64,000 nt of DNA from positions 384,001 through 448,000 of the forward strand of contig CAVSGI010000009.1 in NCBI GenBank assembly GCA_963727445.1, written 5' to 3'. The notes beneath the pieces were generated by a model that was given only the letters and a program-made list of their open reading frames with translations, did no database searches and was not told the DNA's origin. This document shows positions 2,029 to 17,537 of this stretch, one piece after another. The stretch is from an uncultured delta proteobacterium (GTDB lineage: Bacteria; Myxococcota_A; Polyangia; Polyangiales; B10-G4). Positions within the stretch are counted from its first letter, which is position 1, and every line of letters begins with the position of its first letter. A program made the translations under genes and the position numbers.

Positions 2029-3551
2029 GCGTAGAGCTCCTTCAGCTTCGCCACGTTCGGCGGAAGCGCCGGGAGGTGATCCCACGGGTCGCCCCCCGCG
2101 CCGATCCCCTCGCGGAACGGGAACTCTGGATGGTGCGTCTTGACGTGCTCGGCCAGGTCGATGCCCATCTGGCCCATGCGCTCGAGGTTCTTCACCACGC
2201 AGCGCCCGATGCCCTCGCGCATCGTCTCGCCGTCGCGGATCAGCTCGACCAGGACGTCGTAGGTCTTGTCGGCGAGATTCGGGTCGTCCACCTCGAGGGC
2301 GAGGTGCGGTGTCCCGCGGTCCACCATCAGATTGCGGATCCGCTCGTCCATGGTGATCCCCGCCGACGGAACGAGGCCGGGCATCGATGTCACGATGGCG
2401 TGATAGCGGCTCGAGACCATCGCGCTCGCCTGGCGGATCACGCTGACCATCTCGTACATCTCGTGCTCGTCCGAGACGAAGACCGGCATCCCGCCGAAGA
2501 TGTCAGCGAGCATCTCGCAGGCGCCCCGGTCGAGCTGCTCCATGCCCACCGCGATCGGGAAGCACTCGTGCTCGTCGGCGAAGCGGCGCGCCGCCTCGGC
2601 CATCGCCCGTACGTACGTCTTCTGCTTGTCGCGGATCTCGTCGCTCGACGCGTGGAAGTAGACCGACTTGTAGTGGCTCGGGTCGTCCGCTCCGGCGGCG
2701 ACCAGCGCCGCCTTCAACACGTCCGGCTTCACCGGCCACCAGAAGGCGTTGATCGGGCAGAGCGCGATGACCGGCTTCTCCCCGTCCCATCCCGCGTCGC
2801 GGAGGAGCTTCTGCCCCACGGCGTCGGGCGCAGGCGCGAAGGTCCATGCGGTATCGGTCCCGGCCCGCGACGCGACGCCGAGCCGCGACAGCACCTCGCG
2901 GCTCTCGGCGTTGCGCGCGATGATCAGCGCGTCCTGGCAGTACTTGCGGACCAGCTCCTCGAGGGACTCGTCCATCTTGCCCGCCTCGCCGCCGTACCCG
3001 ACGGCGATCTTGCCCTCGGCCGACGCCAGGCCCAGCGAACCCACCATCATCGTCGACAGTGCGTTGGCGAACTTGCTCTTGAACATCGAGCCTTCGCACG
3101 CGATCACGCCGTGCTGCTTGTGCACGGTGTCGAAGAGGAACTTCGGATAGAGCTGGGGAAGCGTCAGCTGCTTCACCGTGCGGAAGTAGCCGCGGCTCAG
3201 CTCGGGATCGATGGTCAGGATCGACAGCTCGACGTGGTCGTCGCCGAAGACGTGTCGGAACTGCCGGATCATCTCCTCCACGCGCACGTCGGCCCCGGTG
3301 TTGCGCGTCCCGGTGTAGCCAGCGAGCAGGAGCCGGAGCGGCCGCCCGGGCGTCCACACCGCGCCCGCATCGAGCGCGTAGCGACTCTTGGCGAGCTCGA
3401 TGAAGCCAGCCATCGTGCCCATCAGCACCTTGTCGGAGTCGACGCCGTCCTTGGTGGACTCGGCGACCTTCTTCACGAAGCGCCGGGCGCTGGCGAAGAG
3501 CCCGTCACCACCCCGCTTCGCGAGCAGCGCGCTGGTCGTCGGGGCGCTCAC
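2025..3551 (-). CDS. Polysaccharide pyruvyl transferase family protein
   Basis: AGYTGTRNTGAD N-terminal motif, IIARNAES, TDTAW, SSRYHAIV C-terminal motif typical of CsaB/WcaK-like proteins. Confidence 0.8.
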   Translation of the reverse strand: MSAPTTSALLAKRGGDGLFASARRFVKKVAESTKDGVDSDKVLMGTMAGFIELAKSRYALDAGAVWTPGRPLRLLLAGYTGTRNTGADVRVEEMIRQFRHVFGDDHVELSILTIDPELSRGYFRTVKQLTLPQLYPKFLFDTVHKQHGVIACEGSMFKSKFANALSTMMVGSLGLASAEGKIAVGYGGEAGKMDESLEELVRKYCQDALIIARNAESREVLSRLGVASRAGTDTAWTFAPAPDAVGQKLLRDAGWDGEKPVIALCPINAFWWPVKPDVLKAALVAAGADDPSHYKSVYFHASSDEIRDKQKTYVRAMAEAARRFADEHECFPIAVGMEQLDRGACEMLADIFGGMPVFVSDEHEMYEMVSVIRQASAMVSSRYHAIVTSMPGLVPSAGITMDERIRNLMVDRGTPHLALEVDDPNLADKTYDVLVELIRDGETMREGIGRCVVKNLERMGQMGIDLAEHVKTHHPEFPFREGIGAGGDPWDHLPALPPNVAKLKELYA

Positions 3552-4708
3552 GCCTGGATCTCCGTCGGGACGTGAACCCGGACCGGTCGGTCGGGGAAGG
3601 GCTTGTAGGGGTACTGGTAGTCGTGATCGCGCACCCAGTGGTAGAGCGGCACGCAGTAGTCGACGAAGGGCACCGGCGCCTCCCCGCGCAGCGCCTCGAC
3701 CGCGCGGCTGTTGTCGAAGACCGTGTCGTAGGTCATGTATGGCCAGAACACCTTGAGCACCGCCGCCAGGCCGGTGACCGCGTTGCGGGCCGGGAACTGG
3801 TCGACGAGGCCGACGAGCGTCGAAAAGCCCTGGTCGAGCGCTGGCACGAAGCGCGCGGGCCGCTGCCCGATCGCTCGCGCCACCACCTGCGTGATCTCGC
3901 GCGCGGTGTTCGACGCCTCGCCCGCGGAGAGGCTGTAGGCGTCGTACTTCGGCTCCGGCGTGAGGAACACCTTGGTGATCACCCGGGACACCCAGTCCAC
4001 GTTCGCGATGTCGATGCGCACGTTGCCGTCCATCGGAAGGATCGGCAGGCCGGCGAGGATGCCCAGCATCTTCGCCATGTCGAAGGCCGTGGTCCGGGGG
4101 TGCCGCGCGTCACCGAAGACGCTCACCGGCCGGTAGACGACCCGCGTCACGTCGGGCAGGAGCTCGTCCACCATGTGCTCGGCGAACTTCTTGGTGCGCG
4201 CGTAGGGGTCGTAGTCCGAACGATCCCACTCGACGGTCTCGTCCTCGGTCAGCACTTCGCCGTGGCGCTTACCCGCCACCGCGGCGGTCGAGATGTGATC
4301 GAAGCGACGAAGGCCGTGATGGTCGCGCGCGTCGCGCGCCATCTCGATGACGGCGAGGGTGCCACGGAGGTTGTGGTTGAAGCAGGCCTTGGCCGACTTG
4401 CGGTTGAGCGACGCCGCGATGTGCAGGAACGACGAAGACCCGCGGACCACGCGATCGTAGGTCTCGTCGTCGAAGCCGAGCCGCGGCTCGGTGAGGTCGC
4501 CGAGGGCGATGTCGATCCGATCGAGCGCGTCGAAGAACTCGGGGCCGTCCATGTGATTCTGGAAGGCGCGCCAGATCTTCTCTTCGGCGGCCTTTCGGCT
4601 GCCGCCGCGGACCAGGAGCGTCAAGCGTTCGTCACTTCGCCGCAGCAGGCGCGCCGCGACGTAGCTGCCGATGAATCCGGTACCACCGGTGACAAAGATG
4701 CTCATCAC
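3548..4708 (-). CDS. Extended SDR / thioester-reductase-like NAD(P)-dependent oxidoreductase
   Basis: VTGGTGFIG Rossmann motif, HIAA, HISTAAV, YARTK (YxxxK), YRP. Confidence 0.88.
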   Translation of the reverse strand: MMSIFVTGGTGFIGSYVAARLLRRSDERLTLLVRGGSRKAAEEKIWRAFQNHMDGPEFFDALDRIDIALGDLTEPRLGFDDETYDRVVRGSSSFLHIAASLNRKSAKACFNHNLRGTLAVIEMARDARDHHGLRRFDHISTAAVAGKRHGEVLTEDETVEWDRSDYDPYARTKKFAEHMVDELLPDVTRVVYRPVSVFGDARHPRTTAFDMAKMLGILAGLPILPMDGNVRIDIANVDWVSRVITKVFLTPEPKYDAYSLSAGEASNTAREITQVVARAIGQRPARFVPALDQGFSTLVGLVDQFPARNAVTGLAAVLKVFWPYMTYDTVFDNSRAVEALRGEAPVPFVDYCVPLYHWVRDHDYQYPYKPFPDRPVRVHVPTEIQA

Positions 4709-15725: not shown

Positions 15726-16541
15726 TCAGGGCAGCGCCTGCGACCACGCCGACAAGAGCGCCTCTGGCGCATCCACGTGCACCCAATGGCCCGCGCCCGA
15801 GATCACCAGGACGGTGGTTTCGGCGCGGGCCGCGGCGATGGCACGGGCCCGTTCGATGTCTCGTGCCTCGAAGACGTTCGAGGCTCCGCCGACCACGATC
15901 GACACACGGCACCCTTCGGCGGGCTCTTCGAGCGCCTGCCAGAGGTCGACGGCGAAGTAGTCGTCGAGGAGCGCGCCGATCGCGTCGAGATCGAGTCGCA
16001 GCACATAGCCGTCTCCTTCGGCGTCGACGTTCATCGCGAGCCACCGCGCGAGACCGCGGTCGTGTCCGCGCGCCATCACCGCGTCGACGAAGGCTTCGCG
16101 GGACGCCCAGCGTTTGGGGAGCTCGCGCAGCATCGCCACCACCGCGAGTGTGCCTTCGGAGCCTCGGCCATTCGGTCGCGGACCCGGCATCGAGTCCACC
16201 GTGACCAGGCTCGCGAGCGTGCGCCGTCGCGCGTAGGCGAGGGCGACCTTTCCACCGAAGCTGTGGCCGAGCACGCCCGCCACCGGAAGCGGCAGCGCCT
16301 CTTCGAGGGCGACGAGATCCGAGGCCGCCGTCGCGAGGGTGTGCGGCGGCGACAAGCCCTGAGACCCCCCGTGCATTCGAAGGTCGACCAGGCACGCGCC
16401 CCACTCGGGGCGCTCAGCGACCAGCTTGCGCGCGAGGCTTCGCCAGTTGCTCTGGCTGCCGAGGATCCCGTGGAGCACCAGGACCAGGCGCTCTGGCTCG
16501 GCGCCCCGAGCGCTCACCAAGCTGTGTGAGAGAAAGCTCAC
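15726..16541 (-). CDS. Alpha/beta hydrolase (YbfF/ABHD11-like esterase)
   Basis: LHGILGSQSNW, VDLRMHGGS, GHSFGGK, AGHWVHVDAPE; start set at GTG 16541. Confidence 0.88.
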   Translation of the reverse strand: MSFLSHSLVSARGAEPERLVLVLHGILGSQSNWRSLARKLVAERPEWGACLVDLRMHGGSQGLSPPHTLATAASDLVALEEALPLPVAGVLGHSFGGKVALAYARRRTLASLVTVDSMPGPRPNGRGSEGTLAVVAMLRELPKRWASREAFVDAVMARGHDRGLARWLAMNVDAEGDGYVLRLDLDAIGALLDDYFAVDLWQALEEPAEGCRVSIVVGGASNVFEARDIERARAIAAARAETTVLVISGAGHWVHVDAPEALLSAWSQALP

Positions 16542-16564: not shown

Positions 16565-16645
16565 AAAAGAAGGCCCCCGGCTGCCGCGGCACGATGCAAG
16601 GAGGGGAGGGACTGCACAATACCGAGACTTTGCGGGGGGCCTTCG
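16565..16645 (-). ncRNA. Candidate sRNA A (~80 nt, long hairpin with C/U-rich anti-SD-like loop)
   Basis: Outer stem GAAGGCCCCC/GGGGGCCUUC followed by UUUU; inner stem CGGUAUUGUGCA/UGCAUCGUGCCG with G-U pairs; loop UCCCUCCCCUCC; TTGCGG-17-CACGTT promoter at 16679-16651. Confidence 0.55.
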
Positions 16646-16722
16646 GGTAAAACGTGAGGCTGCTTCAGCTCTGCCGCAAGCCCAGCCTTGCCTTCGGCTT
16701 TTGCGCTGCCGTATACCGGGAT

Positions 16723-16810
16723 CTCCGCGTCGACTGCGAAAATGCGAGGAGGGGATCCTCTGCACGGTCGTAAGCGAAGGCCCCCGAAACCCGGGGGCTT
16801 TCGTGTTTGT
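16723..16810 (+). ncRNA. Candidate sRNA B (~90 nt, complementary to sRNA A)
   Basis: TTGCCT-18-TATACC promoter (16688-16717); stem CGACUG/CGGUCG enclosing the UGC-GAGGA-GGGGA-UCCUC-UGCA hairpin; ends in an intrinsic terminator. Confidence 0.5.
16775..16810 (+). terminator. Rho-independent terminator
   Basis: CGAAGGCCCCC-GAAACCC-GGGGGCTTTCG then TGTTTGT; G-U wobble and U tract favour the + strand; may also terminate the convergent GST gene. Confidence 0.7.
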
Positions 16811-16820
16811 GGCTTCAGCC

Positions 16821-17537
16821 TCACGCGTCGCCGTCTTCATCCAACTCCGGGTAGTGGCGAAAGAGGCCTTTGTCGTTGAAGGGCTGGCGCCGATCGGAGG
16901 CGAGGTACGCGGCGATCCTGGGGAGCGCGGCGACGCGCGCGCGATGCGCCTCGAGCGCCGGGAGCTCCTTCGCGACGCGGGCGTGCGCATGCGGCAGCGC
17001 GTGAGCGATCCCCTCGATCGTCTGAAAGAGCGAGAGATCGGCGTAGCTCATCGTCTCGCCGGCGAGCCAGGGACCGCGCGCGAGCACACGCTCGAAATAG
17101 CGGCCGAACTTCGGCAGGCGATGGGCGATGAAGGCCGCCGCGCGCGCCTTCGCTTCCGCCTTCTGCTCCTCGTAGTAGGCCTGCGGTCCGAGAGGGTGGT
17201 GGGTGTCGTGGGCCTCCACCACCAGGTCCGCGATCGTCAGTTGATAGAGCAGCACGTTCGCTCGGCCGATGGGATCGGCGGGGCAGAGCCCGAGGCGGGG
17301 CCCGAGGTAGTCGAGGATCAGCGAGGTCTGCGAGAGCAGGACGTCACCGTGGACCAGGATGGGGGGCGCGAAGGGCGGCGGAGAGCGGTCGTCGAAGCGG
17401 CCGGGCTCGTAGGGGACATCCTCGAAAGGGGTGCCGGTCGCCTCGAAGGCCAGGCGAACGTACTCCCCGCGGCCAGGCAGGCCCGACCAGTAATGAAGGT
17501 GGTATTCGGCACTCTTCCGATTTTCAGTGGTCGACAT
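16821..17537 (-). CDS. Glutathione S-transferase
   Basis: YWSGLPGRGEYVRLAF, FAPPIL, SQTSLILDYL, LTIADL, SYADLSLFQ; ATG at 17537. Confidence 0.9.
   Translation of the reverse strand: MSTTENRKSAEYHLHYWSGLPGRGEYVRLAFEATGTPFEDVPYEPGRFDDRSPPPFAPPILVHGDVLLSQTSLILDYLGPRLGLCPADPIGRANVLLYQLTIADLVVEAHDTHHPLGPQAYYEEQKAEAKARAAAFIAHRLPKFGRYFERVLARGPWLAGETMSYADLSLFQTIEGIAHALPHAHARVAKELPALEAHRARVAALPRIAAYLASDRRQPFNDKGLFRHYPELDEDGDA

Follow-up and report, generated by a model that had tools for sequence, protein, structure and literature searches.

A conserved candidate small RNA with an open C-rich loop in Polyangiales and its adjacent G-rich candidate sponge

Introduction

C-rich regions of bacterial small RNAs (sRNAs) can be masked by a G-rich RNA. 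In Bacillus subtilis, RoxS and FsrA have their C-rich regions masked by the stand-alone RNA RosA, and in Staphylococcus aureus those of RsaE, RsaG and RsaD are masked by RsaI (PMC8216469, in excerpt). The sponge CrfA of Caulobacter crescentus masks the seed shared by the multi-copy siblings SisA-D (PMC12559287, in excerpt). The Cuckoo/RSs0680 family of alphaproteobacteria has C-rich anti-Shine-Dalgarno (anti-SD) loops, variable stems and paralogues (PMC4615179, in excerpt). In Myxococcus xanthus, ncRNAs have been surveyed (as cited in PMC8538405) and the candidate sRNA MXnc1 is described as binding near SD sequences (10.1101/2025.09.11.675593). Pxr (RF01812), a Cystobacterineae sRNA, has three stem-loops and a sigma54 promoter (PMC5568312, PMC5684412), and tandem pxr paralogues exist (PMC5568312). 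In type VIII toxin-antitoxin systems such as SdsR/RyeA and CreTA, one RNA neutralises the other; SdsR and RyeA overlap in antisense (PMC8610362, PMC12737573).

Here we analysed a 64-kb stretch of DNA (the window) from a genome of the order Polyangiales. A preliminary description, made from the sequence of the window, had proposed two adjacent, oppositely read and mutually complementary small RNAs between a hydrolase gene and a glutathione S-transferase (GST) gene. RNA A is a hairpin of about 80 nt with a C-rich loop, and RNA B is a G-rich unit of about 90 nt. Outside M. xanthus, our literature search brought up no sRNA regulator described from these myxobacteria. A apparently represents an sRNA family that has not been described before, next to which an antisense-like partner recurs; no published description of the family was found, in a search outside which most subscription papers lie. 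None of the Rfam 15 covariance models reached its gathering score between positions 16000 and 17400 of the window (four chance matches, best E 0.31), and at 12 homologous loci a neighbouring tRNA was the only significant match, in line with the earlier remark that the pair was not recognised as a named family. The Pxr model matched neither in the window nor in the genome, the latter being a weak search whose control matched nowhere.

The following comparisons hold for the available text of the reports cited above. In the reading favoured below, A and B would work in the manner of RoxS/FsrA with RosA, RsaE/RsaG with RsaI and SisA-D with CrfA, but they are members of none of these, nor of the Cuckoo or Pxr families. 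A and B resemble RoxS and RosA in having a C-rich loop and a G-rich partner, and the targets of RoxS include citrate synthase. However, RosA is about 229 nt long with open G-rich regions, whereas B has about 90 nt and a G loop of only 4-5 nt. B also differs from RosA in that it adjoins A and looks A-derived, comes from another phylum and has no Rfam match. CrfA and SisA-D depend on Hfq, whereas Hfq was not found in the genome that carries A and B (86% complete). Unlike SisA-D/CrfA, the lineage in which A is multi-copy is one without an adjacent B. Cuckoo RNAs have two to four hairpins, each with CCUCCUCCC, whereas the one hairpin of A carries UCCCUCCCCUCC above a closing stem that is invariant. 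Pxr and MXnc1 (the latter compared by description only) are, as A would be, myxobacterial sRNAs without Hfq; in contrast to Pxr, A has a predicted single hairpin and a TTG-type promoter pattern. CreT needs a strong RBS with a mini-ORF and is CRISPR-linked, whereas B has no conserved ORF. In contrast to SdsR and RyeA, A and B have no overlap; nor is B an obligate companion of A.

Results and discussion

Organization of the locus

The start of the hydrolase gene (16541) and the stop of the GST gene (16821) are separated by a gap of 279 nt, which was given earlier as about 280 bp. The features in and around it are as follows, by position in the window.

15726..16541, minus strand: alpha/beta hydrolase gene, 271 aa from GTG at 16541; Pfam Abhydrolase_6/_1
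16565..16644, minus strand: RNA A, about 80 nt, a predicted single long hairpin with a stem+UUUU end; fold z -5.7
16596..16615, minus strand: core of RNA A, GCAGUCCCUCCCCUCCUUGC, with a predicted 12-nt open loop at 16611-16600
16651..16679, minus strand: predicted promoter of A, TTGCGG-N17-CACGTT
16688..16717, plus strand: predicted promoter of B, TTGCCT-N18-TATACC
16723..16810, plus strand: RNA B, G-rich candidate sponge of A, about 88 nt, inferred ends
16742..16765, plus strand: segment of B predicted to pair with A (14 + 6 bp)
16746-16760, plus strand: small hairpin of B, GAGGA-GGGGA-UCCUC, with an open G loop, within the A-complementary segment
16774..16804, plus strand: predicted hairpin in B that resembles a terminator and has a U-rich tail
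16821..17534, minus strand: GST gene; Pfam GST_C_3/GST_N

The 5' end of A was placed from the position of its promoter, and its U tract lies 24 nt from the start of the hydrolase gene on the same strand. The -35 boxes of the A and B promoters are back to back, 8 nt apart, with the same spacing in the homologous locus L002. The GST gene converges on the 3' end of B, and the terminator-like hairpin of B may double as a terminator for it. The promoter boxes and the B hairpin reported in the preliminary description are present in the sequence, but a strict consensus scanner called 0 promoters and 0 terminators at the A/B region.

The motif reported twice (16594-16617 and 16742-16765) was located at both places as direct repeats with 19/24 identical positions. 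The whole 9.47-Mb genome contains two exact matches to it and three at two mismatches. With just two exact copies, the motif is not a REP-like repeat, which had been named as one of the findings that would speak against a dedicated RNA pair.

The RNA A family

Homologues of A were searched for by BLAST of 41 related genomes, by scanning genome and metagenome collections for the pattern, and in 401 genomes of the order. This gave 39 distinct matches, from which L063, L075 and L078 were dropped for lack of the GCA/UGC closing stem. The 36 copies counted comprise 17 single-hairpin and 19 paralogue-type copies. The records that carry names are Polyangiales, Sandaracinaceae and Myxococcota MAGs.

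The core of the family is 20 nt long, with 19/20 positions invariant in 35 aligned copies, and in the predicted folds the 12-nt loop is unpaired in all 36. The C-rich strand had the better z score in 32/36 copies. In the window, the minus strand of A folds at -43.2 kcal/mol (z -4.1 to -5.7) and the plus strand has z -0.5; the predicted fold leaves the UCCCUCCCCUCC loop open and ends in the stem+UUUU, as described before. Because alignment A2 yielded only 4 consensus pairs, the 17 single-hairpin copies were used to assess covariation. Two-sided changes were found at 11/16 pairs of the basal stem, a level matched by 0/500 shuffles and not reached by slid controls, in a test that favours the structure because the structure was derived from the very alignment tested. 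At 61-75 nt 5' of the core, the C-rich strand carries a TTG-N19/20-(C/T)A pattern in 30/36 copies, compared with 3/33 on the mirror strand. The U tails vary among copies and are weak in several. Judged from these comparisons, A is a conserved RNA family with a predicted open C-rich loop and a promoter pattern on the same strand, and it is very probably transcribed as an sRNA. The proposal of a minus-strand sRNA with a C-rich loop was thus supported by comparison of the 36 copies.

The range of A is narrow. Its core occurs exactly at 26 places in 15 of the 401 order genomes, all 15 being true positives, with one further match at a single mismatch; the reversed control pattern matched 3 times. 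In a phylum sample, 6/401 genomes matched the core at two or fewer mismatches. Four of these were exact and within the order, and the other two (L099 and L100) were judged by eye to be chance. No convincing A was found beyond the order in the samples of 401 phylum and 150 class genomes, and viral contigs gave 0 matches. Model searches of 150 order and 150 class genomes added the paralogue L031 and a weak variant in genome G023 (L119); the remaining weak matches were read as coding sequence. L119 (1501-1575) is a weak A-like hairpin at a second site in that genome; it ends in a U tail, and its C-rich loop is shortened. In the sole other genome of the genus (86% complete), A is absent at the hydrolase gene.

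In one genus, 3-4 scattered A paralogues occur per genome, mostly with a terminator-like hairpin. L031 is a true tandem paralogue of A with the promoter pattern on its C-rich strand. Copies of one paralogue class are found in or next to tRNA-linked integrative elements: L035 has an integrase gene (2467-3834) and a tRNA-Gly (3848-3921), L039 has a BRO/antirepressor gene (2344-3132), and in L054 and L076 a tRNA-Leu is immediately upstream. The class represented by L036, L038, L068, L069 and L082 has another promoter-like site, TGGACA-N17-TACCTA or similar, and precedes a FabH-like gene where checked. Near position 1500 of L196, a truncated A runs from the 5' half to the loop and continues as unrelated sequence, perhaps an insertion scar.

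RNA B: strand and cassette

Segments resembling B were scanned for within 600 nt of the 36 A copies, 30 of which have at least 400 nt on both sides. They were found beside nine copies, in addition to the true paralogue, and always within about 210 nt of A; the other 27/36 have no adjacent B. The nine all belong to the 17 single-hairpin copies, compared with 0/19 paralogue-type copies.

A direct repeat is most simply a same-strand tandem paralogue, and the strand read by B was therefore examined. In the window, the plus strand of B folds better (z -3.3) than the minus strand (z -1.9), with the GGGGA loop open at 16751-16755 in the predicted fold, in accordance with the preliminary description. 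The C-rich-strand promoter pattern is present in 0/9 B copies, whereas the paralogue L031 has one. On the G-rich strand, TTG-N21-TA was found in 5/9 copies and TATAT/TAATAT in the three marine copies, with neither in L003. TTG-N21-TA occurs in 4/5 loci with divergent B versus 0/27 A copies without B, and its background is 0.8% of intergenic 66-nt windows; the naive count overstates the strength of this pattern, as it was read off the same sequences and the nine loci amount to about six lineages.

The clearest evidence came from locus L094, a metagenome contig on which GST gene, gap and hydrolase gene follow each other as in the window and A is nearly identical. Here the promoter, B and the terminator are inverted jointly, so that B lies on the strand of A and is still G-rich. 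Pairing in its terminator is kept through base changes, and its small hairpin is one pair longer. In the window, a perfect 10-nt inverted repeat (16653-16662 and 16816-16825) flanks the B cassette together with the -35 box of A. It does not coincide with the ends of the inversion that L094 implies and is possibly chance or a relic.

The 3' end of B faces a convergent gene in the window, L002, L009 and L093, so that in these four loci no coding gene is left for the B promoter to transcribe. L003 has a gene on the same strand about 70 nt after B, and B could be the leader of that gene. In the three marine loci, B is downstream of A and points towards it.

Bases at which B is not simply complementary to A tend to form a short stem, and the G run is in a predicted open loop in 6/9 copies. 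The outer stems of the marine copies close via G-U pairs on the G strand. Overall, the compared loci point to B being a movable cassette and, as had been proposed for the window, a transcription unit of its own that reads G-rich on the plus strand. We consider it likely that B is transcribed from the plus strand.

B as a peptide-coding toxin mRNA was considered and rejected, as a start codon at SD distance is present in 1/9 B copies. No convincing distant B was found among 17 extra pattern matches in 10 genomes. Near position 1500 of L203/L201, a G-rich stretch that follows a TATAGA box is able to pair with A over 16 bp. It was rejected as a trans-encoded B because it is found in only two genomes that are 99% identical and is absent from two congeners.

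Predicted pairing of A and B

The 14 + 6 bp duplex described earlier for the window was recovered by the accessibility-corrected calculation. Its energy was -17.7 kcal/mol and that of 30 shuffles -5.7 +/- 2.2, with the shuffles scanned to a maximum of 16 nt and the real pairs to 24 nt; B had been picked for its likeness to A, so that this comparison is not independent. Elsewhere, values of -21.8 to -27.0 were obtained in 6/8 loci, with -13.5 in L094 and -12.1 in L009. In a nested co-fold model, which cannot represent loop-loop contacts, net binding was -4.0 kcal/mol in the window, -2.4 in L094 and -4.1 in L009, all within the shuffles (-2.8 +/- 1.4), and the cognate A ranked 24th (window) and 26th (L094) of 34. 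The same model gave -15 to -25 kcal/mol in L002, L003, L093 and the marine trio. Strong pairing in both models was thus obtained in 6/9 loci.

Complementarity between A and B extends over 18-26 nt in most homologues and 14+6 bp in the window. The A of its own lineage is the best or second-best match for B in 7/9 loci, and the best in four. In two marine loci, only sister marine A copies outscore the own A, and in L003 and L094 one other A copy does so; for the window B, five A copies of other lineages match better. Because of this and the weak nested binding, the window pair is among the weaker examples of its class. The lineage-specific matching of A and B fits both selection for pairing and local duplication, functional or not.

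The upstream-divergent B copies match the loop and the 3' stem strand of A. The marine copies match the loop and the 5' stem strand, not the 3' strand. The GAAGGCCCCC stem that A and B share in the window, formerly taken as a sign of duplication, is present, but it is a weak sign and is not kept in the closest homologue of B. The lineage-specific likeness of A and B in other genomes appears to be better evidence of duplication.

Proposed mechanism and alternative explanations

On balance, we favour a model in which A works as an anti-SD sRNA and is titrated by B, a stand-alone sponge whose G loop makes a first contact with the C loop of A before B covers the seed. A would be a trans-acting sRNA in part of the order, made from its own promoter, which we take to be of the sigma70 type. 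Its invariant C-rich loop, held open atop a variable stem, would pair with G-rich SD regions in two registers, CCCUCC and CCUCCUU, and block translation of several mRNAs, in a genome in which no Hfq was found. B would be a second small RNA with its own promoter, read from the strand opposite to A. Its short G loop may touch the C loop of A first, in what is presumably a kissing loop; its weak hairpin would then open and pair along the loop and top stem of A. The duplex would hide the seed, and B would in this way titrate A in the cell as a sponge. The B hairpin may also keep its own SD-like stretch away from ribosomes. As a candidate independent transcript with predicted complementarity to the A seed, B fits the sponge trait. 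If B works as predicted, A and B form a side-by-side sRNA-sponge pair in a lineage in which we found no Hfq. Both are short enough for in vitro pairing and reporter assays.

It is also conceivable that A is a genuine anti-SD sRNA and that the main job of B lies elsewhere, for example in decoying the 16S anti-SD or a protein or in regulating other C-rich RNAs, with the pairing to A a by-product of its origin. The cassette is conserved as a unit, B contains a strong SD-like run, and the B copies of the window and L094 carry changes that lower their complementarity to A and bind it poorly in the nested model, as such a role would allow. However, most of the SD-like run is hidden in the fold, a start codon at SD distance is rare (1/9), the B-like units stay close to A (about 210 nt), and nested binding is strong in L002, L003, L093 and the marine trio. 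We regard this reading as unlikely.

B might instead be a partial duplicate of A that is silent or in decay, either a paralogue read from the strand of A or a relic, with a plus-strand promoter and terminator that arose by chance or serve neighbours such as GST. That the two motifs are direct repeats, that B occurs patchily and that the marine B units reach weak scores (17.6-25.6 bits) as complete copies of A would agree with this, and A does duplicate, as seen in the L031 tandem and the 3-4 copies per genome in one genus. Yet the C-strand promoter pattern of L031 is missing from all nine B copies, and the cassette inverts as a unit, the hairpin and U tail travelling with B and not with GST. 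Furthermore, B-specific changes create new stems, including the marine outer stems that rely on G-U pairs of the G strand. Such a relic is improbable.

In the sponge model, the B units would go back to local, partial copies of A in which an opposite-strand promoter arose. As a tentative suggestion, which we hold with less confidence than the model itself, sponges may have been born repeatedly from their own target in this way, a few changes having refolded the copied seed into a small hairpin with an open G loop. Duplication with a strand switch would be a testable account of sponge origin, in at least two geometries. If true, it is a simple, repeatable route to Hfq-independent anti-sRNAs, recognisable as a "direct repeat" beside an sRNA.

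Genomic context of RNA A

The usual neighbour of A is the hydrolase gene, which lies downstream on the same strand in 14/36 copies and is divergent in L083; the rest of the copies are elsewhere. Among relatives, the A core was found upstream of the hydrolase in at least 5 of 30 loci, one of the 30 being mis-oriented. We considered whether A acts mainly in cis, as a leader or attenuator of the hydrolase gene whose read-through is tuned by B or by ribosome or SD-like pairing. The 24-nt spacing between the U tract and the gene, together with the 14 upstream copies, suits such a role, and the weak U tails of several copies make read-through plausible as a side effect, including into the hydrolase gene of the window. 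On the other hand, 22/36 copies (the 19 paralogue copies and 3 others) have no same-strand hydrolase downstream, the distance from A to the HG motif of the hydrolase varies from 143 to 396 nt, and the hydrolase gene is present in 50/61 relatives, mostly without A. The stand-alone paralogues away from the hydrolase speak against A being merely an attenuator; a mainly cis-acting A is quite improbable, and attenuation as its main role, offered earlier as an alternative, was set aside.

The citrate synthase gene is divergent from A in 6 loci. In the A-negative relatives L138 and L139, it directly abuts the hydrolase gene, which suggests that A was lost from between the two genes.

An RNA-only, type VIII-like toxin-antitoxin pair, also raised in the preliminary description, in which A would poison translation via many SD sites and B neutralise it, is very improbable: A and B are adjacent, oppositely read and complementary, the A loop is complementary to 7-mers enriched in leaders, and some A paralogues are near an integrase or antirepressor gene, but 27/36 A copies, including those linked to mobile elements, have no adjacent B, distant B candidates were unconvincing in 10 genomes, the units, unlike SdsR and RyeA, are not overlapping, and viral contigs gave no match.

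Candidate targets of RNA A

A has two traits of C-rich anti-SD sRNAs, namely a conserved, predicted single-stranded C-rich loop complementary to SD sequences and, as sequence patterns, its own promoter and 3' end. With its invariant seed, it is a well-conserved candidate sRNA family in Polyangiales. The core contains CCUCCUU, in common with the 3' end of the 16S rRNA of the host genome, and A would repress translation at SD sequences. SD-type 7-mers complementary to the A loop are 2- to 5-fold enriched in the predicted gene leaders of this genome, an enrichment explained by ordinary SD use. No clear target of A stood out among 3160 crudely predicted leaders of the genome.

Complementary leaders of two nucleoid-protein genes (IHF-like and HU-like) were compared in 29 genomes. 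The IHF-like leaders of 13 A-positive genomes paired less well with A than those of 15 A-negative genomes. For HU-like leaders, the energies were equal and the exact match was 7.1 nt in A-positive versus 6.2 nt in A-negative genomes (p 0.01), in a length test that was chosen after the fact and in which kin are not independent and one genome is counted twice. For the HU-family gene L206 (G000:C6 near 167050) and its orthologues L236-L262, many genomes of the order have the word GGAGGGA or AAGGAGGG in the leader, whether or not they carry A.

The citrate synthase leader of this genome has no obvious A site. In L046, the citrate synthase leader, about 297 nt upstream of the A core, contains a 10-nt match to the A loop and is a possible target site of A. 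Two further, shorter matches to the A loop lie within a small tandem repeat of the same leader.

In L128, L134 and L145, which belong to another family, the gene divergent from the hydrolase gene is one that we take, by its sequence, to be cold-shock-protein-like. A conserved G-rich leader is present on this gene in all three loci.
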